DNA from: a virus
Taxonomy: Duplodnaviria > Heunggongvirae > Uroviricota > Caudoviricetes
Virus record (IMG/VR): IMGVR_UViG_2700989400_000006
Location: 1 to 25,248 of that record
Strand: one strand, 5' to 3'
Length of the DNA: 25,248 bases
The translations under genes and the position numbers were made by a program. Positions 2,237-18,318 of the stretch are shown in pieces; position 1 is the first letter of the stretch; each line of letters opens with the position of its first letter. Below the pieces are notes generated by a model, which searched no databases, had not been told where the DNA came from, and saw only the letters and a program-made list of their open reading frames with translations.

Positions 2237-2274
2237 CCGGCAAGTCTTCAATGGATTTCCCCTGCCGGTTTTTT
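2237..2274 (+). terminator. Hairpin followed by T-run (CCGGCA...TGCCGG then TTTTTTATTTT)
   Basis: 6-bp stem with a ~20-nt loop followed by T6; seen on the plus strand only. Confidence 0.35.
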
Positions 2275-2370
2275 ATTTTCGTCGATGCATAACATTGCAT
2301 TTACATCAATAGCAGCTATTGTCATTAGTATGTTGCATCGATGCATGGGTGGTATTGGCGGTCTTCGCCG

Positions 2371-2405
2371 ACCGGTTCTGTGTAGCTCCCTATGACCGGT
2401 TTTTT
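2371..2405 (+). terminator. Hairpin followed by T-run (ACCGGT...ACCGGT then TTTTTATTT)
   Basis: Two copies of the palindromic hexamer ACCGGT separated by 18 nt, followed by T5; the CCGGTTTTTTATTT unit is a direct repeat of 2262-2276. Confidence 0.35.
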
Positions 2406-2620
2406 ATTTCTAAGATTACAGAAGCCCTTCACTGTATGAAGGGCTTATGTAACTCTTCTTACTTAGTAATTTTCGCACCTTCCGGTATTTCCATGAGTTG
2501 AGAAAACCTCATACTATCCGACAATAATCATCAATATACGATAAAGACATCTGACCAGATTGCAGTATTAAAAGCACTCATGCAGACTACGCCCCTCATA
2601 TCATATACAAGGGGATACTG

Positions 2621-3031
2621 ATGGCTCAGGTTGCCATTTTTAAAGAAATATTTGATCAAGTGCGGAAAGATTTAAACTGTGACCGGTTTTACTCTGAACT
2701 AAAACGCCACAATGTCTCACATTACATTTACTATTTAGCCACAGGTAATATTCACATTGTATTTGAGAGCGATAACACGGTGTTAATAAAAGGTTTCCAT
2801 GATGTTATTCATGTTAGCTTTTGCAGAGACACGCGACTTATAGAAACTTACCTTCATAAGTTGAAATCAAGAGAAATCACATTTCATGAATACAGGGTAA
2901 ATCTGGCTAAAGCTGGAGTTTTCCGATGGGTTACAAATATCCACGAACACAAAAGATATTACTATACCTTTGACAACTCATTATTGTTTACCGAAAGCAT
3001 CCAGAACACGACTCAAATTTTTCCACGCTAA
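2621..3031 (+). CDS. Hypothetical moron protein, YbcV-like (DUF1398-type as I recall)
   Basis: 136-aa ORF on the strand opposite the late genes, AT-rich, located between cos and bor as ybcV is in E. coli DLP12 (from memory). Confidence 0.5.
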
Positions 3032-3255
3032 ACCATAACGTCCGGTTTGATCCGCCTCAGTAGCCGGCACTCCCACACAGGAGTTACCAGTCGGTGCTGT
3101 GGCCATAGTTAATCTGGGTATACAGTAAAGATACAGCACATCTGGCATACTTTAATAAACATTAACAATATGAGATTTCAACTCATTGTTTAGGTTTTGT
3201 TTAAATTTCCACAAATACGATGCACCAAACTTAAAAACACAACGGGAATCACACG

Positions 3256-8063: not shown

Positions 8064-8261
8064 TCACTGCGGAAGGCGTCTGTAACAACCGAACTGATAA
8101 TCTGCCAGACCCGCCATCACAAGCTGGGTCAGTATTAACTGGCAGCGTTCGCGTGAAAGGTAAGTATTCTGCGCAATTTCCCCAACTGTTGCCGGTTCAG
8201 TGACGCTTAATTCATTAAACACCACTCTGGCTGTTTCGGTCATATCCTGCTGTTTTAGCAT
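8064..8261 (-). CDS. Hypothetical small protein (65 aa), possible winged-helix fold
   Basis: ORF from the track; the segment TVGEIAQNTYLSRERCQLILTQLVMAGL looks like a helix-turn-helix recognition unit. Weak evidence. Confidence 0.4.
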   Translation of the reverse strand: MLKQQDMTETARVVFNELSVTEPATVGEIAQNTYLSRERCQLILTQLVMAGLADYQFGCYRRLPQ

Positions 8262-8435
8262 GTCTTTTTCTCTTTATTGGTTAACGTGACATACCAATAA
8301 CTCTTGTCGAAAAAGCCAGCAAGCTGAAAGACCGGTATTAATAACCACCAGCACATTTTATGTACCACACCATTTTTCTGGCATAAAAAAACCGCTCAAT
8401 GCCGGGCAGTAAAAATCTTCATTACTCAAGAAATT

Positions 8436-9149
8436 TTAACGCACTCTGATAGTATTAATTTCAAAATCATTAATATTTCCGCTATTAAATATAACGAATT
8501 TCTTACCCCCACTCCTGTATGATTTCGATAACACCAGACGATCATCATAACGCGCAATAATGTAATACCATACATTCTCATAGTGGATCGCCTGATATTC
8601 CCTCTTAAACTGTGGTTTGTACCAACCGGCAATAAGAGAGAATGCCCAGAAATAAATCATAAACCCAGCCATCATGAACTCAATTCGGTGATGGCGAATA
8701 AAAGACATTTCCGAAAAACATTTGACTGAAACAAGTCTTCTTCCAGACCTGACAAAAAGCGTGATTGTAAAGGCAGCAAGAATGCAGAAAATCAGTACAT
8801 CTGGCTCAACATGCTGATGAATTACCGAAAACTCCAGAACAGGTGGAATAAAAAGCAGCAATATCGCGAGAAAAAGCCGGATAAAACTCAAATTTTGTAT
8901 ATTGCGCTTTTGTTTTATGCCCAAAAAGAAAACAATACCAACTCCCCATCCAATAAGGAATATAACGATAACTGTCACAGCATAAAACAAACTTCGTGCA
9001 ACATCATCGACACCAGCCCCGACAACCCACCATGGAAAGCCATAGTAAAATGAAGTACCCCATCCATAGAAATAAGCGCTTCCCCATCCTAGACAGCCCA
9101 TATAAGCAACAAAAAGTGAAGAGTTTCTGAGCAGAGCACTGTCATTCAT
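8436..9149 (-). CDS. Integral membrane protein (237 aa) encoded on an AT-rich moron
   Basis: Four to five hydrophobic, Trp/Tyr/Phe-rich segments in the first ~170 aa followed by a soluble C-terminal tail; first gene downstream of the tR'-like terminator; hand counts on sampled 60-nt lines give ~27% G+C. Confidence 0.6.
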   Translation of the reverse strand: MNDSALLRNSSLFVAYMGCLGWGSAYFYGWGTSFYYGFPWWVVGAGVDDVARSLFYAVTVIVIFLIGWGVGIVFFLGIKQKRNIQNLSFIRLFLAILLLFIPPVLEFSVIHQHVEPDVLIFCILAAFTITLFVRSGRRLVSVKCFSEMSFIRHHRIEFMMAGFMIYFWAFSLIAGWYKPQFKREYQAIHYENVWYYIIARYDDRLVLSKSYRSGGKKFVIFNSGNINDFEINTIRVR

Positions 9150-9291
9150 AGTAACACCATTAACAACTCAAAAATATCAACACATATTACATAACAAATT
9201 GGATTCCATGCAGTCAAGGGGCGTCATTGATGGAGAAAGTATTGGCACAATCGTCATCACGTTTAATGTCTATGCCATTTTTTGGGGGGAT

Positions 9292-9403: not shown

Positions 9404-10075
9404 CTATGAAAATGCCGCCTTTTGTTTTGAACGTGTTCTCTCCACTAACAATAAAGCTTCACTATCCAGCCGATGAAAAATGTGTTTCATTGCAACCCAG
9501 TGACCAGTAAATGTCTTGGACCAGTTTTTGGTTGTTACTCCCACCAGTAACGCCAGTTCCTGGTATTCGTAACCTTCCCCACCAAAAAGCTCAGCTTTTA
9601 CCGCCTGCGCCGCCAACCAGATCAACGTCTTCAGGCGCACCAGAGTTTTTCCTGCAATTTTTCTGGTACCGGATTGAGCATTAAATTCAGTCCACGCCCA
9701 CTGCGTTATCGCGATCTGATGCTCCCAGCAAATGCTACCGCTGTAACACCACAGCAGCCAGGCTTTATGATGTTCTTCAAGAGACAGAACGGCGCGTCGC
9801 CATGATGATGTCGAAAACTCAACCGGACTGACCAGGGCAATTGATGAACCTTTCGCCAGCGATTGCTTTCCCGGGATCGGTGGATTATCCAGCGTTACTA
9901 TTTTTCCAGTGACCTTATCGCGGTACCGGATTTTTTTACGTCTGTAACGCCCTGTATTGAACATGGCATTCTCCTGCCAGGCTTCAAGCTGACCTTTTGT
10001 TGCTCCACTCAAATCAGCGGTGGCGATCGTGAGCTGCTCACGCACAAACTGTAAATACTGGTTATTCATGCGCAC
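9404..10075 (-). CDS. Putative late-gene antiterminator (Q-like, non-lambda family)
   Basis: 223-aa ORF directly downstream of rusA and directly upstream of the pR'/tR'-like elements. No lambda-type zinc finger; the assignment rests mainly on position. Confidence 0.5.
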   Translation of the reverse strand: MRMNNQYLQFVREQLTIATADLSGATKGQLEAWQENAMFNTGRYRRKKIRYRDKVTGKIVTLDNPPIPGKQSLAKGSSIALVSPVEFSTSSWRRAVLSLEEHHKAWLLWCYSGSICWEHQIAITQWAWTEFNAQSGTRKIAGKTLVRLKTLIWLAAQAVKAELFGGEGYEYQELALLVGVTTKNWSKTFTGHWVAMKHIFHRLDSEALLLVERTRSKQKAAFS

Positions 10076-10437: not shown

Positions 10438-11487
10438 TTATCCGAGCACGCCGGTTGCAAAGGCGTGATCAAGAAAACGAAAAATTAAATCAACCTGAGA
10501 ACCATGCTTTTCTTCGAACGCCAACGGATCTGCATGAAGCTCGTTATGATGTTTACGACACAACGGTAACGTGAAAATATCGTGGGCCTTTGTTCCCATT
10601 CCGCCCTGACCATGACCTATCAGGTGATGGGGATCGTCAGCTGGCTTACCACAGCACGCACACGACTGTGTCTTTACCCAGCGTGTGTATTTCTCATTTA
10701 CCCAACGGCGACGTTTAGGTCGCTTCATGAAAGATTCCGGGGACTCAGGATCAACGGCGATGCTTACCACCGCCTTTTCCTGTGGTGAGTTTTGTTGCTG
10801 GTGGACGTGAGGCGGTAGCGCAATATTTTTTGTGCGCTGCTTCAGTATGCTGGTGGCTGTCTGTTCTCCCGGTACGATGTCGCTCTCGCGATACACAGAG
10901 AGGATTTTTTCCACCGGTAATCCCAACGAACGACGTGATACTGCCTCAGGTAGAGCATCCACCATCTGATTGCAAACCGCCCACCAGGATAATTCAGCCA
11001 GCGATAATTCCCGCTCCTGCGTGCCATTCATTGCGTGACGTATAACCTCAAGCATCCAGGCTGTCAGATTTTGTTGAGCAAGTTGCTCGAGTGATTCCGA
11101 TGTCTGGTCGCGCAGCTGGTTGTCGCAGTGCCAGCACAATACCATCGCGCCGGTACCGTAACGGTGAATAACGGTTTCACTATGGTGGTAATCACCATGA
11201 GGCCACTGGCAGGATTTGACATGGCGCAGTAACCAGTCAGACAGTGCACCAGCGCCGCCAGCAGCACGAATCACTCGTTTGTTACTGAAAAACGGCAGTA
11301 ATGATTTATCCTCCGCCAGCGGCTGGCGAACGGTAGGGACGACTCCGGACGGCAGACCGCGCATGCTTTTTGGTTCCGGCTCCACCAGTACTCTGTCGTT
11401 ATGGAATACCGACATTGATTCACGGCCTGGCTTAACGATAACCACCCCGAGTTCCGGTACCGGAACAGGTCGAAGTAATACCCGCAC
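10438..11487 (-). CDS. DUF968-family phage protein (YdfU-like) with C-terminal Cys/His cluster
   Basis: 349-aa ORF, GTG start after GGAGG; C-terminus SCACCGKPADDPHHLIGHGQGG...LCRKHHNELH suggests a zinc-binding or HNH-like module; size and position match Qin YdfU as I recall. Confidence 0.65.
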   Translation of the reverse strand: MRVLLRPVPVPELGVVIVKPGRESMSVFHNDRVLVEPEPKSMRGLPSGVVPTVRQPLAEDKSLLPFFSNKRVIRAAGGAGALSDWLLRHVKSCQWPHGDYHHSETVIHRYGTGAMVLCWHCDNQLRDQTSESLEQLAQQNLTAWMLEVIRHAMNGTQERELSLAELSWWAVCNQMVDALPEAVSRRSLGLPVEKILSVYRESDIVPGEQTATSILKQRTKNIALPPHVHQQQNSPQEKAVVSIAVDPESPESFMKRPKRRRWVNEKYTRWVKTQSCACCGKPADDPHHLIGHGQGGMGTKAHDIFTLPLCRKHHNELHADPLAFEEKHGSQVDLIFRFLDHAFATGVLG

Positions 11488-11488
11488 G

Positions 11489-11899
11489 TTACCTCCAGAT
11501 CCGTTGCTGGAATGTGCGGGACTGACGCGGTGGGCGTTCGGAATAAGGAAGCCTGACGTAGATTATCCAGTGACGATAATCGGGGCTGAGGGCTTTCTTA
11601 ATCTCGTATCCGCGTCTGCGGTAGCAATGAATTAACCATTCAGCCTGTTCTTCAGTGCATGGAGAATGCTGGAACCAGTCCGATTTGAATGCGTGAAAAC
11701 GCCGTCCGCACCTTCTGGCAAAGACGGTAGAATCATCAGAATTGTGTAATTTGGTATCGTGCGCCATCGGTTGTCTCTGCTGGCGCAGCAGGTGCCAGTT
11801 GTTCAGGCTGGCGTATAAAGTATAAATAAACTGGTTCCAGTGTAAAGCCCCTACATTAATGAAATAAAAATCAAACAACAGATTGCTGGGATAAAACAC
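11489..11899 (-). CDS. Hypothetical phage protein (nin-region); true start may be internal
   Basis: ORF from the track, stop adjacent to the DUF968 start; the first ~45 codons are AT-rich with no clear Shine-Dalgarno. Confidence 0.4.
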   Translation of the reverse strand: MFYPSNLLFDFYFINVGALHWNQFIYTLYASLNNWHLLRQQRQPMAHDTKLHNSDDSTVFARRCGRRFHAFKSDWFQHSPCTEEQAEWLIHCYRRRGYEIKKALSPDYRHWIIYVRLPYSERPPRQSRTFQQRIWR

Positions 11900-12226
11900 A
11901 ACGCTTATTATTAAAAGCGATTAGATAAATTAAATTTTAATGTTATGCAAATTTGCCAGATCACCATAATATCTCGTTTGAAACCACCGAAATAACAACC
12001 ATATCAATATTGATTATGTTAAAGCGAGTAAATATGGAAAACAACAAATCTGCACATTACGCTCCTTTTTTATCTGTGATACTTTTTGTTTTATGCTGTG
12101 TGTGGGCATTATTTTTATAAAAATATTTACAGATAAAATAAACCCGCCGAATCAAGTTAAGTGTGGGTGCATTGAGGATGCCTGACTCATCAGAGGTGGC
12201 GAGGGATTTCTCCCTCGCCTGGTCTC

Positions 12227-12382
12227 TTACTCCTCAGGTTCGTAAGCTGTGAAGACAGCGACCTCCGTCTGGCCGGTTCGGATTCGTACCTCGCAGAGGT
12301 CTTTCCTCGTTACCAGTGCCGTCACTATGACGGTTAAACAGATGACGATCAGGGCGATTAACATCGCCTTTTGCTGCTTCAT
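12227..12382 (-). CDS. hokD: Hok/Gef-family type I toxin (51 aa)
   Basis: MKQQKAMLIALIVICLTVIVTALVTRKDLCEVRIRTGQTEVAVFTAYEPEE matches my recollection of E. coli HokD (RelF). A perfect 9-bp hairpin (12198-12219) follows the stop, consistent with the folded 3' end of hok-type mRNAs. Confidence 0.9.
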   Translation of the reverse strand: MKQQKAMLIALIVICLTVIVTALVTRKDLCEVRIRTGQTEVAVFTAYEPEE

Positions 12383-12439
12383 AGCCTGCTTCTCCTTGCC
12401 TTTCGGCACGTAAGAGGCTAACCTAGATTTGCCGTTCAT
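12227..12439 (-). CDS. Mok-like upstream reading frame containing hok (70 aa, same frame)
   Basis: In-frame N-terminal extension MNGKSRLASYVPKGKEKQA preceding the Hok methionine, as in chromosomal mokC/hokC pairs (from memory). Confidence 0.5.
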   Translation of the reverse strand: MNGKSRLASYVPKGKEKQAMKQQKAMLIALIVICLTVIVTALVTRKDLCEVRIRTGQTEVAVFTAYEPEE

Positions 12440-12949
12440 AGATTGAGCCTCAGATTAATGTTAAACGTCTTGCAGGACGCGTAATGTTAACTGGGGCTTT
12501 TCTCTATCTGCCTTTGGTGTTCATGCCTGAGGCAGATAGCCTCAAGCACCCGCAGCAATTCTACTTAACTCCCGTCACCTCGCCAATATAAAATCAATCA
12601 GAAAGGCGATCCGTAAGAACAACAGCAAGACAATAAATTGCCATTACAGCCGCAATAGCTAGCGCACATTTGAGAACCAGCACGACAACCTCCTGTATTG
12701 GACGTACACCAATTCTGATAAATATGAGGCTGTCTCATCATTGATTCAATATAACTATTGGGTATAGTTTCTGTGATTTTGTTCTGTAGAAATGGAACAC
12801 AACAACCAGTCACCACCAGCACTTCTTTAAATACGCCAAGTCCGACGCAAGCTAACCTTCTAGTCCGCTTTGAGCGAAGAGCGGACATTGCTAACAGCAT
12901 CCTGTGTGAATCATTACGATCAAATCGATGACTAGATAAGTACAAACCG

Positions 12950-12978
12950 GAAAAGGGGCCTACTGACGAAGTAGGCCT
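12950..12978 (-). terminator. Intrinsic terminator of the three-gene cassette
   Basis: Minus-strand RNA: GGCCUACU-UCGUC-AGUAGGCC (perfect 8-bp stem) followed by CCUUUUCCGGUUU, starting 17 nt after the stop of the last cassette gene. Confidence 0.6.
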
Positions 12979-12994
12979 GAGTTCCTTATATATT

Positions 12995-13651
12995 TCACAA
13001 AATTCTGAGAGTTTCTAAGATGGATAAAAGTGTTGGAAGCTGACTCTCTCTCACACGGAATCTACCCGTCCTAGATAATTCCGTTTCAATTCCGTTAACG
13101 AAGAAATGTACGGAATCAAAAACGGCCGAACTATTCATGTATTTATTCTGATAAATTTCTTGGAGATTCTTTGAGCTTACTATTTTTGTCTTTGCTAAAG
13201 TAAAAGGATCAACAGAGATATTAGATAGAGACATGGATTTTATCTTGATGTCAAAGCCCTCAGAAAGACCATTTACAATTTTTCTCAGATCAAATTCTAC
13301 TGGTCTCAAGCCACTATCTTCACCAAATAGTTTTTGCACCATAGTATAAGGCACTTTCATACTTAATGGAGGATTAGTGGCATATAGTATGATTTTTTTC
13401 CCTTGTCTGACGCCAAAGTCCACATTTAAGTAAGTTGCTATTTCAACCTCTGAACGCTCGCCATTAGCATATTCTAAGCTTTGCTTGCTAATGCTTCTCA
13501 TGGTAAATCTTAGTTTAAGCACTTCAGAGTTATTAATGATTTGAAAACCATATCCTTTATCTTCATCATAGAGGTTGTCATTTACTTTATGTAATAACTC
13601 ACTTTTAGTTATATCCTTTTCTGCTTTATAAATTTTTACCTTTATCATCAT
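12995..13651 (-). CDS. Cassette gene C: uncharacterized protein (~218 aa), third gene of the AT-rich three-gene operon
   Basis: Start chosen at ATG 13651 (MMIKVKIYKAEKD...) with AGGAGG 6 nt upstream, overlapping the TGA of gene B as ATGA; the track start 13678 is TTG. No motif I recognise. Confidence 0.75.
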   Translation of the reverse strand: MMIKVKIYKAEKDITKSELLHKVNDNLYDEDKGYGFQIINNSEVLKLRFTMRSISKQSLEYANGERSEVEIATYLNVDFGVRQGKKIILYATNPPLSMKVPYTMVQKLFGEDSGLRPVEFDLRKIVNGLSEGFDIKIKSMSLSNISVDPFTLAKTKIVSSKNLQEIYQNKYMNSSAVFDSVHFFVNGIETELSRTGRFRVRESQLPTLLSILETLRIL

Positions 13652-14895
13652 CCAGCCTCCTGATTCAAAGTCTCGCAAGACATAGCTTTCGTTACTGGGT
13701 ATCGCTTGGTATGCTCTTCGATAATAAAGTCATTAATCAAAAATATTTTATCTTCTAATTGTTTCATGACTTGATCAAAGTCTGCGTCACTGAGTTTTTC
13801 TCTCTCTGCGGATGCAGAGTTGCTTTCTTTGTATAACGCTCTGAATTTTATATTTTTCCCAAGATATTTATCATCGAAACTAAGTTCAAAAGTTATAGTA
13901 TGATTCTTAACTACTGAGGAAAATGACTTCCATCGAATTAAGCTTCGATAAAACCCATCACTGCACAGTTCCTTAATTTGAGGTGCGTTCACTAATGATA
14001 GGCCATCATACGCGGCATTGTTAATGTTAAAAGTTAGGTTTTCATCATCGTCAGATGCCATTTCCTGATTATTAATGTCATCATCATTTTCGTTATCTGT
14101 AGAAGGTGAAATCTTGTTTAATAACTCTTGTGTTTCTTCGTTATTATTTCCTTCGAGATTATCTCCATTAATATCCAGAGATGTTTTTATTCTGCTTACT
14201 CTAACCTTTTCAAGACCAGCATATTCAAGTCCTGTTTTTTTATAATTTCCATCAAAATCATAAAGATGAACAGCAAAAATATTCCTAAGATCTGTATCAA
14301 CGATACTTGATAAATCTATTTCGTTGACAACTATGTTGTTACAAACTGTTGATGAATATGTATCAATTATTTGCTTGAGAATTTCTGAAATGCGTGGCGT
14401 ATAGTTATATCTTACTGAAACATATCCTTTTTTTACTATAAAAACTATACTCCCACTGTACAATTTTTTCTGCTGAAACTTACCCCTTCTAAAATCAAAC
14501 TCAGTATAATCAATAGATATATGATAGGTTTGCAAGCCTGAGTAATGATCAATTTTCTCATGCCCTAGCAACTTGGGTCTATTTTCTTTCACTTTGTTTA
14601 CAACGTCATAGAGTTTCTCTATATCAAATTCTTCATATATACGTTTTACTGAGAAGACGTCTTGGCTGGGTTTGGTTGCCAGTTTATCTTGTACTTCTCT
14701 GATGTGATTATATGAAAATGGCAGGTCTGATAATTTTTCTATCAATACCTCTTTTGATAAGTTAGATGGGAAAATTATCCCTCTATTGAAGGCGATTTTC
14801 CTTAATGTAACATCTGTGATTTTTGCACTGTTAGAGTGGAGGGCGGTATAAATGTCACTTTCGTTTGAAAACAACGTAGCTTGATATTTATTCAT
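13648..14895 (-). CDS. Cassette gene B: uncharacterized protein (415 aa) with a central acidic low-complexity linker
   Basis: ATG 14895 lies 10 nt after the gene A stop with AGGAG in between. Residues ~240-285 (NNNEETQELLNKISPSTDNENDDDINNQEMASDDDENL) form an Asn/Asp/Glu-rich linker between two halves. No Walker A/B or other motif I recognise. Confidence 0.8.
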   Translation of the reverse strand: MNKYQATLFSNESDIYTALHSNSAKITDVTLRKIAFNRGIIFPSNLSKEVLIEKLSDLPFSYNHIREVQDKLATKPSQDVFSVKRIYEEFDIEKLYDVVNKVKENRPKLLGHEKIDHYSGLQTYHISIDYTEFDFRRGKFQQKKLYSGSIVFIVKKGYVSVRYNYTPRISEILKQIIDTYSSTVCNNIVVNEIDLSSIVDTDLRNIFAVHLYDFDGNYKKTGLEYAGLEKVRVSRIKTSLDINGDNLEGNNNEETQELLNKISPSTDNENDDDINNQEMASDDDENLTFNINNAAYDGLSLVNAPQIKELCSDGFYRSLIRWKSFSSVVKNHTITFELSFDDKYLGKNIKFRALYKESNSASAEREKLSDADFDQVMKQLEDKIFLINDFIIEEHTKRYPVTKAMSCETLNQEAG

Positions 14896-14905
14896 GTCAT
14901 ACTCC

Positions 14906-15997
14906 TTATGAAAAGTGACATTTTCTATTCACCTGCTTGCTGGCAACCTGGTACTCAAATATAGATAGCTTTTGATTAACAAAAGGAATGGATACTATTT
15001 TTTCCTTTAACGTTTCTATATGAGATTGAGTGAAAGAATATATTCCTATGTAATCATTAATGGCGGATTGCAAATGAATGCTTGAGTGTGATGAGAACGG
15101 AGTTATAACAAATATTTTGTTAAATTGATTGAGTAATTGATAGTTAAATATATACTCTAAAAGAAATATAAAGTGGTTACTGGAATCAATCTCTTCCTTC
15201 CAGAATATATTCAATATTTTATTTCTTATTCTATCGCCACCATCATTTCTAATATATTCGTGTTCATATGAGTAAAAAATCATCCCAGATGTTATCATTT
15301 CAATTGTGGCTGGAAGGATTTTCCCTTTCGTTGCTATTTTATTATGTTTGTCAGGGTAAAAATATGTACAGTTCTCTATCTCAGGAATTTTTTGCCATAA
15401 CATATTTGTTTCTTGTGTTACTTTGTCAGTAATTCCTCTTCTAGTCTCGATGTGTTCTGTAACATCTAGTAAAAATCTGATCATAGTTGGGTCAAAAACG
15501 GCAATCACAGAGTTCTCTGGAAAATCATAACTTGCTGTGGCTGCTCCATTTAATTTCTCAATTAAATCAGAGTCATATTTATTGTCATGATTATATATAA
15601 AAAGTAGGCCGTTAACTTGATATTTCTCATTTGTGCTGTCAACAAATAGACGCCGCCACTCAGGACTTCTTGGCGCGCAAGCTACCTGTTGTGATAAACT
15701 TCGTACAGTGTTCAATATTGATTTTGTACCGTCAAGCGTGCTGGCACAATAAGATTTTAAATCTGTTTGTATATACTGAGTTATATCTGAATAAGGATCT
15801 TTATATTTGAAGACTACATCCGTAGGATGAGTTTTTTTTGGGTTTTCAGATAAAAGTTGTTTAGCGTTTAGATGAGATCTCAAACAACAGTCCCAACTTA
15901 TATCCGTTGTATTTTGGGTTTTCCAGCCTAACTCATCAAAAATTCTACTGGAAATGATACCTGCAATCTCATCAATATTCTTAGTTTCGCCGCCCAC
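14906..15997 (-). CDS. Cassette gene A: uncharacterized protein (363 aa), first gene of the operon
   Basis: GTG start at 15997 preceded by GGAGGA; no in-frame ATG upstream. The N-terminal ~90 aa carry a pattern compatible with, but not diagnostic of, a PD-(D/E)xK nuclease core (FDE ... HPTDVVF ... IQTDLK). Confidence 0.7.
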   Translation of the reverse strand: MGGETKNIDEIAGIISSRIFDELGWKTQNTTDISWDCCLRSHLNAKQLLSENPKKTHPTDVVFKYKDPYSDITQYIQTDLKSYCASTLDGTKSILNTVRSLSQQVACAPRSPEWRRLFVDSTNEKYQVNGLLFIYNHDNKYDSDLIEKLNGAATASYDFPENSVIAVFDPTMIRFLLDVTEHIETRRGITDKVTQETNMLWQKIPEIENCTYFYPDKHNKIATKGKILPATIEMITSGMIFYSYEHEYIRNDGGDRIRNKILNIFWKEEIDSSNHFIFLLEYIFNYQLLNQFNKIFVITPFSSHSSIHLQSAINDYIGIYSFTQSHIETLKEKIVSIPFVNQKLSIFEYQVASKQVNRKCHFS

Positions 15998-16287
15998 GCT
16001 TCCTCCATAGTTCGTTGTTTTATCTAGTGAAGATCTGATTCATGGTTTTCCAAGCCCATGCGCAAAACAATTAATCAAGTAAGAATAATCTTAATCAATT
16101 TAATCTTTTTTATTTGAATCATCAAGAGCCCCATTACTGATAGGCATCAGTTGGTGGTATCTCTGCTCAAGCTTCAGTAAAATCTGGTTTGCTACTTCCG
16201 CTCCTGGCACAAAGCGGACAACCGCGCTAGCTCTACCCTGTGCCACAAAATGTCAATTTGCATCTGAACTAATGCACTTTAATCTCG

Positions 16288-16710
16288 TCACTTCAGTAAA
16301 TACCGAACATCCCCCTGATAAAACGACAATATGCGCTGCATAACTTCGCTTTTACGACACTCAGTACAAATCATATTATGACGCCTGTCGTAACGACGTA
16401 TTTCTCCATCAGGTAATGACCAGATAAGGTCCGGATCAACCGCAGATGGTTTCTTCAGCTTTGCCCTTGAGAGCTTTTTACGGGCATTTTGCCAGTCCTT
16501 ACGCGCCTGTTCAGACGGGAATAACCCGTAACCAGAGTTGTATACATCGCCACTGGCAACCAGCTCTCTGGCCAGAACGTTCATCAGATATCTTGTTGCC
16601 CCAGTTTTAGTTTCCAGTTGTCGTAACGTCTCGCGCCCACTCTGGCGTACGAGTTCAACAACCTGCCCTTTAATTTTTTCCCGCTCTTCTTGTGTAAAAA
16701 CTTTTGCCAC
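16288..16710 (-). CDS. Hypothetical phage protein (140 aa) downstream of the replication gene
   Basis: ORF from the track; basic C-terminal half (RKKLSRAKLKK) and a possible helix-turn-helix (LRQLETKTGATRYLMNVLARELVASG). Confidence 0.5.
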   Translation of the reverse strand: MAKVFTQEEREKIKGQVVELVRQSGRETLRQLETKTGATRYLMNVLARELVASGDVYNSGYGLFPSEQARKDWQNARKKLSRAKLKKPSAVDPDLIWSLPDGEIRRYDRRHNMICTECRKSEVMQRILSFYQGDVRYLLK

Positions 16711-16750
16711 AAGCCCTCCTGAAAATTACCTCATGACCAGAAATTAACAC

Positions 16751-17827
16751 TTACCCCCTGAAGCCCGGCGGAATTTCGTTATCCGGTTCAGAAATATGAT
16801 TCACACAACGCTGGTTGTTCGTGCCGCTTACCGGGAGCAACCAGGGATTCTCAAAATTCCGGTCCGGTCCAAAAAACGTCGTCGCTCGCTGAACAAATTC
16901 CGTTCCCGTTTTCCCGGTAGCCGCCAAGTATCTTGCGTAACGCCTCACGCCATCCAGCATGGCCTCTGGTGGCACCCCCTCGCGTAATCTGGCCTTCCAG
17001 GCACTGAAAGCGGATTTCTTCGGGTTTGCCCCAGCACGCAACGGGTACTCCCGCCAGACCTGTTCGAACACATCCGGATAATCCACTCGTCCCACAGACT
17101 GCCCGGTGTTTTCCGGGACTACCCGATCGGCTTCCCGCTGAATGGCGGAATCGGCTTCGGGCTGCTGCAGTTGGTGTGATTGCTCCGGTCTTGCGGTCAT
17201 CACCTGCTGCACAGCGCCCGAATCGGCTTTCAGCGCATACGCTGAATCGGCTTCCGGTGTCGTGCCTGCTGGCTGACCAGGATTGACGGTCTGAACATCC
17301 CCTGCCTGGTTCGTGGCGTTTTTTACGCCATGGACCATAGTGTTTTGATCTTCTTGATCTGTATCTTTATCTGTATCTTTATCTGTCGTGACTCGTCGTG
17401 ACATGTGCGTGACATTTCGTGACGCGCCGTGACAATCGCCATTTTGTTCCCGCTTTCTTTCCCTCTCTCGCTGCGCCCTCTTGCGCTCTGCAGGAGATTT
17501 TGCGGTTTGCGAAATATTGCCGTTGTCCTCTTTAAGCACCTGGCGTTTTTCCCATCCAGTGATTAAATCACCATCAAGTACCCGCCCCTGCATCGTCTGC
17601 AAAATTGAATCAATTACCTCTTCTGTCACGTCGAGCGCACTTGCCAAATCTTCTGTCGTGACATCAATGTGACCTCGCGTGACATTTCGTGACGCGCTCA
17701 CCAGGAGGTGGATATACACTGCCATCACTGTTGCAATTGGCTGCCCTGACACCCTGGCAATTGTTCGCCACTTAGGGTCATTTGGCATGTCATGCCATAA
17801 TCTGAGCCAGGCGTTAGCCATACTCAC
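16751..17827 (-). CDS. Replication initiation / replisome-organizer protein (lambda O analogue) with internal iterons
   Basis: 358-aa ORF downstream of the Cro-like/YdaT-like pair; N-terminus MANAWLRLWHDMPNDPKWRTIARVSGQPIATV resembles phage replication-protein N-terminal domains; the gene contains two clusters of phased CGTGAC repeats, as ori-lambda lies inside O. Confidence 0.65.
   Translation of the reverse strand: MSMANAWLRLWHDMPNDPKWRTIARVSGQPIATVMAVYIHLLVSASRNVTRGHIDVTTEDLASALDVTEEVIDSILQTMQGRVLDGDLITGWEKRQVLKEDNGNISQTAKSPAERKRAQRERERKREQNGDCHGASRNVTHMSRRVTTDKDTDKDTDQEDQNTMVHGVKNATNQAGDVQTVNPGQPAGTTPEADSAYALKADSGAVQQVMTARPEQSHQLQQPEADSAIQREADRVVPENTGQSVGRVDYPDVFEQVWREYPLRAGANPKKSAFSAWKARLREGVPPEAMLDGVRRYARYLAATGKTGTEFVQRATTFFGPDRNFENPWLLPVSGTNNQRCVNHISEPDNEIPPGFRG
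17385..17433. repeat. Iteron cluster 1: five copies of (G/T)CGTGAC at 10-11-bp spacing
   Basis: CGTGAC at 17387, 17397, 17408, 17418, 17428 (helically phased); flanked on the lower-coordinate side by an AT-rich tandem repeat (TATCTGTATCTTTA, 17355-17385). Confidence 0.6.
17625..17693. repeat. Iteron cluster 2: four direct copies of (C/T)GTGAC plus one inverted copy
   Basis: Direct copies at 17657, 17668 (TGTGAC), 17678, 17688 and an inverted GTCACG at 17625; the 21-bp block GCGTGACATTTCGTGACGCGC occurs in both clusters (17408-17428 and 17678-17698). Confidence 0.6.
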
Positions 17828-17892
17828 CTCTTTTGATACCGAATCTTTTTACTCACAAATTGCCGGAAGTGATCCGGTATGAATATTGCGAG

Positions 17893-18318
17893 TCAATGCA
17901 CAGCCACAATATTTCCTGCAGGGCCACCACGATTCATCTGGTTGAAACCAGCGATCGCCACTGCGACAAAATCATCAGCGTCTCTCACCAGTCGTTCCCG
18001 CGTCTCCACTAGTTCCCGAAAATATGCTGAGCTATGACTGCGCATTCGGGCCACCAGCAGAGGTGGCATTGCTTTTTCGATAGCTGGTAACAACGCCTGA
18101 ATTTTTTTAACCGCATCAGGGGTGTCTTTCTCCACCCAGCGGAAAATTTTCTGAGTATTGCGAGCCAGGGCTTCCGGATGGTTGTCGTCATACAGTTCCG
18201 GGAACGTCATTCCCAGCTCGAAATACGCTTTGGTAATTTTCGCAGCCGGTACTTTTTCGCCGTCCGGATGCGCCCAGGCATTCATCGCCATGCGGATGTG
18301 TTCATGCTTGATTTTCAT
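17893..18318 (-). CDS. YdaT-like protein (CII-position gene of Rac-type immunity regions)
   Basis: 141-aa ORF whose start overlaps the Cro-like gene stop; size and position match Rac YdaT as I recall; no sequence check possible. Confidence 0.5.
   Translation of the reverse strand: MKIKHEHIRMAMNAWAHPDGEKVPAAKITKAYFELGMTFPELYDDNHPEALARNTQKIFRWVEKDTPDAVKKIQALLPAIEKAMPPLLVARMRSHSSAYFRELVETRERLVRDADDFVAVAIAGFNQMNRGGPAGNIVAVH

Follow-up and report, generated by a model that had tools for sequence, protein, structure and literature searches.

The system named 'HP + HP + HP' (hereafter 3HP) was cloned from a hotspot of phage P2 and protects against phage P1, and its proteins were reported to have 'no clear predicted domain' (Rousset et al. 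2022, PMC9122126). On how such systems are exchanged between mobile elements, the same paper offers speculation only, on recombination at cos ends (PMC9122126), and a 2026 survey leaves the choice between transposition, homologous recombination and illegitimate recombination open (PMC13586616). A second relevant system is GAPS4, which consists of two genes (a and b) or their fusion and forms a 2:2 complex. It is a DNase set off by breaks in DNA, and its catalytic subunit, GAPS4a, has the motif HGxD-SxK (bioRxiv 10.1101/2025.09.07.674715). Here we describe a three-gene 3HP-like cassette in a stretch of 25,248 nucleotides from a tailed phage (Caudoviricetes), the IMG/VR record IMGVR_UViG_2700989400_000006 (positions 1 to 25,248; "the window" denotes this whole stretch), which its surrounding genes, as classified with Pfam and PHROG, place in a Rac/Qin-type lambdoid prophage. 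The cassette lies in a slot next to the toxin gene hok and is bounded by two 24-bp sites, termed L and R. We consider it likely that this slot is a docking place for exchangeable cassettes, which are swapped by site-specific exchange at L and R and largely carry defence cargo.

Movable cassettes are familiar from integrons, whose attC sites follow the consensus boxes RYYYAAC / GTTRRRY and whose arrays without an integrase are presumed to rely on one from another locus. In heterospecific lox/FRT cassette exchange and in the pdif (Xer) modules of Acinetobacter plasmids, a module lies between inverted sites with cores of 6-8 bp, and like recombines with like. To our knowledge, no natural cassette exchange of the L/R kind has been described in phages. 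For the variable Z/fun locus of P2, Nilsson, Karlsson and Haggard-Ljungquist are said to have proposed, in the title of a 2004 article in Mol Biol Evol 21:1, site-specific recombination linking P2-like phages and pathogenic enterobacteria.

Both sites of the window follow one 24-bp plan, with inverted 9-bp arms (GTCCGCTnn / nnAGCGGAC) and a 6-bp core between them (Table 1). Written by their 7-bp inverted arms and 10-nt middle, L reads GTCCGCT TTGAGCGAAG AGCGGAC and R reads TTCCGCT CCTGGCACAA AGCGGAC. They are inverted copies of one element whose cores differ at two of six positions, and the two regions together form a 46-nt inverted repeat, the longest of the region. The arm pattern is matched twice in the 25-kb window, against 0.05 matches expected, and both matches stand at the cassette boundaries. 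Homology to loci with alternative cargo, as read from BLAST junctions, ends at 12878-12911 and resumes at 16191-16197, and the copies of the cassette found in a P2-like phage and on an ICE-like island (ICE, integrative and conjugative element) share 12862/3-16219 with the window; from core to core, the cassette spans 12872-16210. Elements of the same kind bound every alternative cargo and stand between neighbouring units both of the ICE-like island and of a locus carrying CBASS (cyclic oligonucleotide-based antiphage signalling system). Other identities for the sites were considered and set aside: they are followed by no T-run, as intrinsic terminators would be; their arms do not covary, as in hairpins kept by base pairing (GTCTGCT, for example, pairs with AGCGGAC); and their sequences are unlike those known for REP or ERIC repeats (repetitive extragenic palindromes and enterobacterial repetitive intergenic consensus) and of hix, gix and dif sites.

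The cassette itself is rare. It is held by 11 of 5,426 complete E. coli genomes, a holder being a genome that matches at least 80% of 12180-16290 (4,764 genomes match some part of this query), and hok is found in thousands. A search with both flanks (10438-18318) returns many genomes whose backbone is about 94-96% identical and which differ between hok and the DUF977 gene. In 38 loci with both the hok/sok and the DUF977 flank there are 12 different contents, 1.0 to 5.4 kb long, and in all of them the homology of the flanks breaks off 1 bp before L and starts again directly after R. These contents include AbiH with a 463-aa gene (locus L007), a SMODS cyclase with a 2TM/SLATT effector, i.e. a type I CBASS (L008; PADLOC E 4.6e-144 and 9.9e-85), a single 269-aa gene (L009), a pair of 333- and 320-aa genes (L002 and L010) and a 1123-aa gene. 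PADLOC and NCBIfam give no family for the 333+320-aa pair, the 463-aa gene or the 269-aa gene, and a suspected relationship of the 333+320-aa cargo to the first cassette protein, Hp1, was rejected. Conversely, the 3HP cassette recurs elsewhere as a 3.36-kb unit that is 97-99.8% identical: in a P2-like prophage of strain MDK9L1 between the tail-fibre-assembly and tail-sheath genes (the G/FI locus), in the ICE-like island and in a Rac remnant. Thus, this comparison of related prophages takes the three genes out of the lineage core, given their presence in only 11 of 5,426 genomes and in P2, ICE and Rac settings. Relatives with the same flanks carry other cargoes, AbiH and CBASS among them, and therefore the slot is judged from these alignments to be a real defence hotspot and the three genes its mobile cargo. 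The initial annotation had suspected such a hotspot, and the 12 contents, several with recognised defence genes, bear this out; it had also placed the variable region near 12180-16290, which is right in location, whereas the exact extent is 12863-16219.

The point at which cargoes are joined to their surroundings can be placed within the sites. Two comparisons were made, one of the same cargo in different contexts and one of the same context with different cargo. In L, positions 1-9 vary only with context, and positions 16-24 and beyond only with cargo; in R, positions 1-9 vary only with cargo, and positions 16-24 and beyond only with context; positions 10-15, the core, never vary in either. 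All lambdoid slots read GTCCGCTTT-GAGCGA-... at the left end and ...-TGGCAC-AAAGCGGACaacc at the right end, nearly all P2 slots read GTCTGCTTT-GAGCGA-... and ...-TGGCAC-AGAGCGGACtgtc, and the 3HP copy in P2 has ATAGCGGAC as its outer R arm. Inner arms are specific to each cargo and outer arms follow the context, which makes each site, on this comparison, a hybrid joined within its 6-bp core. Because outer arms go with context, inner arms with cargo, and cores are invariant, the segregation points to site-specific exchange of the kind left by reciprocal action of a tyrosine recombinase. The 9+6+9 plan, the fixed 10-nt spacing between 7-bp arms and a switch confined to positions 10-15 are all features of tyrosine-recombinase core sites.

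The same arrangement extends across phages and islands. Viral loci were picked by an exact-pattern scan of IMG/VR for contigs with an R-type element, which gave at least 119 viral contigs, and site statistics were drawn from these together with the earlier loci, 1.33 Mb in all. Arm pairs spaced exactly 10 nt apart number 282, those at 7 nt number 21, and every other spacing tried gives 0-5. Core hexamers fall into two classes with rare intermediates, GTGCCA (R type; 145, at least 119 of them by construction) and GAGCGA (L type; 92, none by construction). There are 90 L-to-R pairs, 0.5-5.9 kb apart, and 36 R-to-L pairs, the closest of which are 40-42 bp apart (median 42) and correspond to junctions inside arrays, [L cargo R]-gap-[L cargo R]. 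The 90 L...R cassettes form 53 sequence clusters with one to four genes each, mostly AT-rich. Recognised defence genes are the commonest matches among these sister cassettes: PD-T7-1, PD-T7-5, several candidate PDC-S systems, CBASS cyclases with E1-E2 and nuclease effectors, DRT reverse transcriptase, ThsB, Pycsar, DarTG, Tmn, AbiH, HEPN, GmrSD and RelA/SpoT. Non-defence cargo also occurs in slots of this family (a few metabolic genes, an iron-uptake operon, dehydrogenases, queH), and many of the cargo proteins examined have no family assignment.

Carriers of L...R cassettes include lambdoid and P2-like phages, ICEs, plasmids and a genomic island of strain CFT073. A second lambdoid lineage has its slot in the corresponding place, with ydfU on one side and the replication genes on the other, and the G/FI locus of P2-like phages holds at least 17 contents in 27 loci. 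The gene fun(Z) of phage P2 itself (L214, NC_001895), a classical lysogenic-conversion gene that blocks T5, is flanked by an R site with one mismatch and a degenerate L site with four (15335-15358 and 17432-17455 of the record). The 3HP cassette, too, occupies exactly this variable Z/fun locus in a P2-like prophage. The CFT073 island (L212, 6199-16210) is an array of L/R sites, with a 5.7-kb cassette of a TonB-dependent receptor and an ABC iron-uptake operon, followed by a 269-aa gene, then a 200-aa recombinase with an ETEC_3214-family gene, and then a 366-aa gene.

As for the cargo of the window, three co-oriented genes follow each other on the minus strand in the order Hp1-Hp2-Hp3, with a 10-bp gap between Hp1 and Hp2; the RefSeq start of Hp3 at 13651 (218 aa) gives it a 4-bp overlap with the stop of the upstream gene. 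They are AT-rich, with GC at 0.30-0.37 where the flanks have 0.44-0.58. Each protein matches its own 3HP model in PADLOC, in order, and in BLASTP against the tested 3HP proteins (sequences from the supplement of PMC9122126) Hp2 is 25% identical over 204 aa (E 7e-12) and Hp3 22% identical over 206 aa (E 2e-12). In addition to gene number, orientation, order and similar sizes, the cassette shares with 3HP its phage-borne place in a hotspot. In contrast, Hp1 and Hp2 of the window exceed the family models by 30 and 56 aa, and the tested system came from the gpA-gpQ hotspot of P2, whereas the window copy sits in a lambdoid slot and the P2-like copies at G/FI. By homology, the cargo is a divergent member of the 3HP family. 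It also differs from the earlier description of 3HP in that a PD-(D/E)xK nuclease domain is found in Hp1. This domain, Pfam PF26115, is present in 72 of 72 clusters of Hp1 homologues, some of which UniRef labels 'GAPS4 PD-(D/E)XK nuclease domain'; H57-P58-x-D60 and L80-K81 show no change among 33 sequences with identities as low as 26%, and D79 is almost invariant. The AlphaFold2 model of Hp1 has an alpha-beta-beta-beta-alpha-beta core (pLDDT 82.7, pTM 0.83). The non-canonical motif of Hp1, HPxD...DxK, is equivalent to HGxD-SxK of GAPS4a. The window cassette has three genes, unlike the two of GAPS4, and its gene sizes and order fit 3HP; the DNA-break trigger is known from GAPS4.

Hp1 is likely a DNA-degrading effector, and Hp2 and Hp3 are most likely its partner or sensor subunits. 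The cassette probably protects the lysogen against other phages, a proposal drawn solely from the homology of its proteins to the tested 3HP, which acts against P1, and to GAPS4. One may argue that the three genes are instead a moron that is selfish or has some other function, such as an addiction or exclusion module built on the nuclease and of use to the prophage itself, given that identity to the tested proteins is as low as 22-25% and that slots of this family also hold an iron-uptake operon, dehydrogenases and queH. We regard such a role as unlikely, since all three PADLOC models of 3HP match in order, a tested relative protects against P1, the nuclease domain is of the type found in GAPS4a, an anti-phage DNase, and the sister cassettes mostly match defence genes.

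A gene that could serve the exchange adjoins the sites in other elements. In the ICE-like island, a 200-aa protein of the Phage_integrase family (E 1.8e-18) is encoded 40 bp from an L site and transcribed away from it, and the canonical residues R...HxxR...H...Y can be read in its sequence by eye. This placement beside an L site is seen in L004, L022 and L109; L022 and L109 are viral contigs in which the recombinase is 96-98% identical and sits inside a slot of the hok/DUF977 type. Every Enterobacterales locus whose upstream sequence was read has an L-type motif about 40 bp upstream of the recombinase start codon, with the characteristic outer arm GTCCCTw, and in most of these loci the gene sits among L/R arrays. 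In E. coli, a degenerate R site and the L site delimit the conserved recombinase module, and the gene is present in 753-912 of the 5,426 complete genomes (about 15%), including CFT073 and Nissle 1917. Relatives at least 60% identical occur in at least 547 species across Proteobacteria, several with GTCCGCT-like motifs upstream. The protein (WP_001324664.1, for example) reaches no curated family threshold and has no sequence relative in the Protein Data Bank, and integron-integrase models score 19-25 bits, against cut-offs of 265-435, in two of three members scanned, with no match in the E. coli copy. From the adjacency of gene and site we infer that this recombinase catalyses exchange at L and R, which is the weakest step of the argument. 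Two further candidates proved unrelated to the 200-aa family: YdfW ('intK') of K-12, and a recombinase pseudogene beside the CBASS cassette of L008.

Two observations concern the upstream region of the recombinase gene. A perfect 12-bp hairpin, ACTCAAATCTCC-N9-GGAGATTTGAGT, reaches into its start codon (L004 5962-6000; Enterobacterales loci L130-L144) and is conserved with the gene; it may serve translational control. Moreover, among Pseudomonas and Stutzerimonas homologues of about 63% identity (L162, L159, L169, L173, L184), four of five loci have the segment TGGCCGGTTAGCGMC about 50-90 bp upstream, L169 retains only GGTTAGCGACC of it, and the GTCCGCT arm before the segment is recognisable in L162 only (GTCCGCTTCTGGCCGGTTAGCGAC). 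This hints that site and enzyme may be conserved together far beyond Enterobacterales.

The anatomy of the slot, its variability, the grammar of the sites and the switch point within the cores are direct observations, and the mechanism that we propose for them runs as follows. The slot lies between a replication module that ends with the DUF977 gene and a hok/sok-rem-ydfU-rusA-Q module. Because the cores differ and the sites are mutually inverted, L is expected to recombine with L, and R with R. Cassettes would then be swapped by reciprocal site-specific recombination within the cores, two exchanges giving replacement and integration of an excised circle giving stacking, and the same cassette could thereby move among lambdoid phages, P2-like phages, ICEs, plasmids and pathogenicity islands. 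The 200-aa tyrosine recombinase, which consists of a catalytic domain only, would act on the window slot in trans, because the window encodes none. In its general form, the proposal is that temperate phages, ICEs, plasmids and pathogenicity islands of enterobacteria share an uncharacterised, non-integron cassette-exchange system with heterospecific 24-bp sites and the 200-aa recombinase acting in trans, and that the hok slot is one of its docking sites. We put this general form at slightly less than even odds.

It could be argued that cargo turnover reflects the ordinary homologous recombination of lambdoid phages through their long flanks, with the palindromes being incidental (e.g. operators or insulators). 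It is established that homologous recombination makes lambdoid phages mosaic, the flanks of loci with alternative cargo keep 92-99% identity across more than 2 kb, and a prophage ORF of 823 aa stands at the place of an exonuclease annotated in the record of a close relative. Yet homologous recombination cannot put the same cassette, with the same end points, into P2-like phages, the ICE-like island and pathogenicity islands that lack common flanks, and it leaves unexplained both the switch inside an invariant 6-bp core at either end and the R-gap-L arrays. It is weakened as a sole mechanism, and we give it only a small chance of being the whole account.

Alternatively, the cassette ends, about 30-45 bp including the sites, could act as homology arms for annealing of the Red-beta/RecT type, a natural recombineering that needs no dedicated recombinase. 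About 35-50 bp suffices for Red/RecET recombineering, the L and R regions form the 46-nt inverted repeat, and conservation runs a few bases past the 24 bp; moreover, the 2026 survey calls the way in which such exchanges occur unknown (PMC13586616). However, different cassettes and contexts share only the 6-bp core and degenerate 7-bp arms, far below useful homology, and annealing predicts scattered switch points instead of positions 10-15 alone. Inverted arms, an asymmetric 6-bp core and two core types are the plan of a tyrosine-recombinase core site, and a gene for such an enzyme adjoins the sites, all of which makes annealing quite unlikely. Finally, the idea that the cassettes are non-autonomous transposons whose sites are terminal inverted repeats mobilised in trans is hardly credible, for although the two ends are inverted copies of one element and the same unit occurs in unrelated contexts, the outer half-repeat stays with the context and the inner half with the cargo, though transposition would carry the entire repeat along, the junctions show no target-site duplication, all cassettes of one phage lineage stand at exactly the same position, and DDE transposase domains are matched in only 1 of 75 cargo proteins each.

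Several points weigh against site-specific exchange of defence cassettes at L and R. The window encodes no recombinase of the 200-aa family, most slots are without one, and its adjacency to L is a correlation. The search found no truly empty slot and no excised circle. relBE in the Qin prophage and queH in strains of the sequence type 95 (ST95) kind fill the region without an L site, and some changes thus bypass the sites. The presence of R in the viral loci is by construction, and what is independent in them is the L sites, the spacing, the grammar and the segregation of arms; only 18 pairs for L and 26 for R have one cargo in different contexts, and they come from few kinds of cassette. With respect to the cargo, identity to tested 3HP is low (25% for Hp2, 22% for Hp3), the PADLOC match of Hp2 covers its N-terminal half only, NCBIfam and Pfam, in the form scanned here, gave no match for the three cassette proteins, and a promoter and terminator scan of the cassette found nothing above chance.

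Two loci had been considered as empty slots. The best candidate, in strain A20 (L210, 664-935), is a deletion remnant of the AbiH cassette in which 272 bp are left between hok/sok and DUF977, with both sites and the cassette ends kept. The other, with the epoxyqueuosine reductase gene queH (L211, 1621-2400; strains O18, IHE3034 and others of the ST95 type), is neither an empty slot nor an L/R case, having no L site and half an R site, and queH appears to have arrived by a different, illegitimate event.

How L/R exchange would compare with known cassette systems can be stated feature by feature. The arrays resemble integrons in their small cassettes with many defence genes and, in some of them, in a tyrosine recombinase that adjoins the first site and is transcribed away from it, and, like the integron clusters of attC sites lacking integrases (CALINs), many arrays are without a recombinase. 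The sites differ: an L/R cassette has two different 24-bp sites of the double-strand type, whereas an integron cassette has one folded attC, and L and R are unlike the attC boxes. Furthermore, the L/R recombinase has 200 aa and falls below integron-integrase thresholds, the cassettes hold their genes in either orientation and include about 200 bp upstream of the genes (where a promoter of their own could lie), and their carriers are phages, ICEs and islands. The window holds a single cassette and no recombinase; arrays beside the recombinase are found in L004, L022, L109, the CFT073 island and the Enterobacterales loci. With heterospecific lox/FRT exchange and pdif modules, the L/R sites share inverted arms around differing cores and the presence of the same module in different contexts; unlike them, the L/R sequences are unrelated to dif or lox, and their enzyme is a candidate only.

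The 3HP family, hok/sok and relBE are already known. Derived here are the lambdoid slot, the two-core grammar, the mapping of the switch point, the defence content and the candidate recombinase, none of which is mentioned in the hotspot papers of 2022 and 2026; among the papers of the library searched, none has the site sequences, and nothing was found on hokD hotspots or an integron-like system of the L/R kind. For the unsettled question of how defence systems jump between elements, the slot supplies two defined 24-bp sites, a 6-bp switch point and a candidate recombinase. If the proposal is true, L/R exchange would be the mechanism, missing so far, that carries defence systems from one unrelated mobile element to another. 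The L...R grammar also offers a cheap, annotation-free way to delimit cassettes and mine new defence genes, and it accounts for the classical morons fun(Z) of P2 and flxA of K-12. The link in nuclease fold between 3HP and GAPS4a gives a first mechanistic handle on 3HP, and the recombinase, if it works as proposed, could become a natural tool for cassette exchange.

The prophage backbone on the two sides of the slot is conserved (Table 1). To the left lie the Q-like antiterminator, RusA, the DUF968/YdfU gene and the small gene at the rem position (for which RefSeq has a shorter CDS of 279 nt), and to the right the DUF977/Ren-like gene, the replication initiator, a cII-like gene, a cro-like gene and the repressor.

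Table 1. Features of the cassette slot and its flanks, in positions of the window (hyphens in site sequences separate arms and core)
Feature	Positions	Strand	Evidence or remark
YdfU-like DUF968/HNH gene, conserved left backbone	10438..11487	-	Pfam DUF968 E 1.4e-76; PHROG 96; kept in all alternative-cargo loci
Small conserved backbone gene at rem position	11489..11899	-	PHROG 1212 E 1.5e-35; hypothetical protein annotated there in relatives
hok toxin gene (HokD)	12227..12382	-	Pfam HOK_GEF E 3e-23
Complete hok leader with mok/sok region (type I antitoxin)	12377..12551	-	Rfam sok RF01794, 111.7 bits (gathering score 59), E 1e-25, full model length
L site, left cassette boundary	12863..12886	+	GTCCGCTTT-GAGCGA-AGAGCGGAC; core 12872-12877
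Hp3-like gene, 218-227 aa	12995..13678	-	PADLOC Hp3 E 4.2e-11; PHROG 5850
Hp2-like gene, 415 aa	13648..14895	-	PADLOC Hp2 E 9.6e-11, residues 8-213 only; PHROG 6531
Hp1-like gene, 363 aa, with N-terminal GAPS4a-type PD-(D/E)xK nuclease domain (H57-P-T-D60 ... D79-L-K81)	14906..15997	-	PADLOC Hp1 E 7.6e-41
R site, right cassette boundary	16196..16219	+	TTCCGCTCC-TGGCAC-AAAGCGGAC; core 16205-16210
DUF977/Ren-like gene, conserved right backbone	16288..16710	-	Pfam DUF977 E 4.9e-29; PHROG 142 (Ren-like exclusion protein); kept in alternative-cargo loci
Replication initiation/replisome organiser gene, right backbone	16751..17827	-	PHROG 3729 E 5.6e-258

The hok/sok type I toxin-antitoxin locus of the window has both of its parts, a Hok-family ORF and a mok/sok leader, and it invites comparison with the relBE-hokD (relBEF) locus of the K-12 prophage Qin. 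The product of hok is identical to HokD of K-12 at 51 of 51 residues, as the initial annotation had presumed, and the order relB-relE-hokD that it gave is correct, the minus strand of MG1655 Qin reading ydfT(Q)-ydfU-rem-hokD-relE-relB. Its picture of a three-gene cassette next to hok, in the upstream position, was right as to the side, but the cassette does not abut hok, a complete sok/mok leader and about 310 bp intervening. Its view of a slot that alternates between toxin-antitoxin genes and other cargo holds for the hotspot and needs a qualification for relBE, which in Qin is not a clean allele of the slot. The two loci are alike in their identical HokD, the ydfU-rem-hokD backbone and foreign cargo upstream of hok; they differ in that relBE lacks L/R bounds, though the neighbouring flxA has them. 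Qin and the window are homologous as far as 12396, which is 14 bp upstream of the hok start codon. With relE starting 71 bp upstream of hokD, K-12 has lost both the sok/mok leader and the L site; Rfam finds no sok upstream of hokD (L001, 9000-9400), and no L site stands between hokD and relE in Qin. The alignment ends 14 bp upstream of the hok start, and relBE is therefore taken to have replaced the sok leader and is not read as an L/R cassette. K-12 hokD can be described as a shortened locus fused to relBE, and the window hok as the intact state. The right-hand junction of Qin is not comparable, the replication genes having been lost there.

The L/R-type cassette of Qin is flxA, flanked by both sites in flipped orientation. 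In the MG1655 Qin locus (L001) its R-type site is at 9982-10005 and its L-type site at 10973-10996 (NC_000913.3, about 1645981-1646995), and the annotated ydfV frame contains the R-type site, so that ydfV may be a junction artefact. In strain MSI001 (L006, 1-10330), relBE and the three-gene cassette co-occur, in the order hokD-relE(pseudogene)-relB-ydfV::IS3-flxA-ydfW, after which come a fragment of ISEsa1, another hok leader that lacks its hok gene, the 3HP cassette and DUF977; in this composite region, insertion sequences join a Qin-like prophage to a window-like one.

Elsewhere in the window, an ORF of 115 aa (12598-12945, minus strand) spans the flank of the hok leader and the L site; PHROGs, Pfam and PADLOC gave no match to it, and most likely it is no gene. 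Two further AT-rich stretches, 2250-3250 and 8250-9250 (GC 0.36-0.40), have no L or R site nearby at up to three mismatches, and they could be other morons. The latter stretch holds a hydrophobic-rich ORF of 237 aa (8436-9149, minus strand) beside the Q-like gene.

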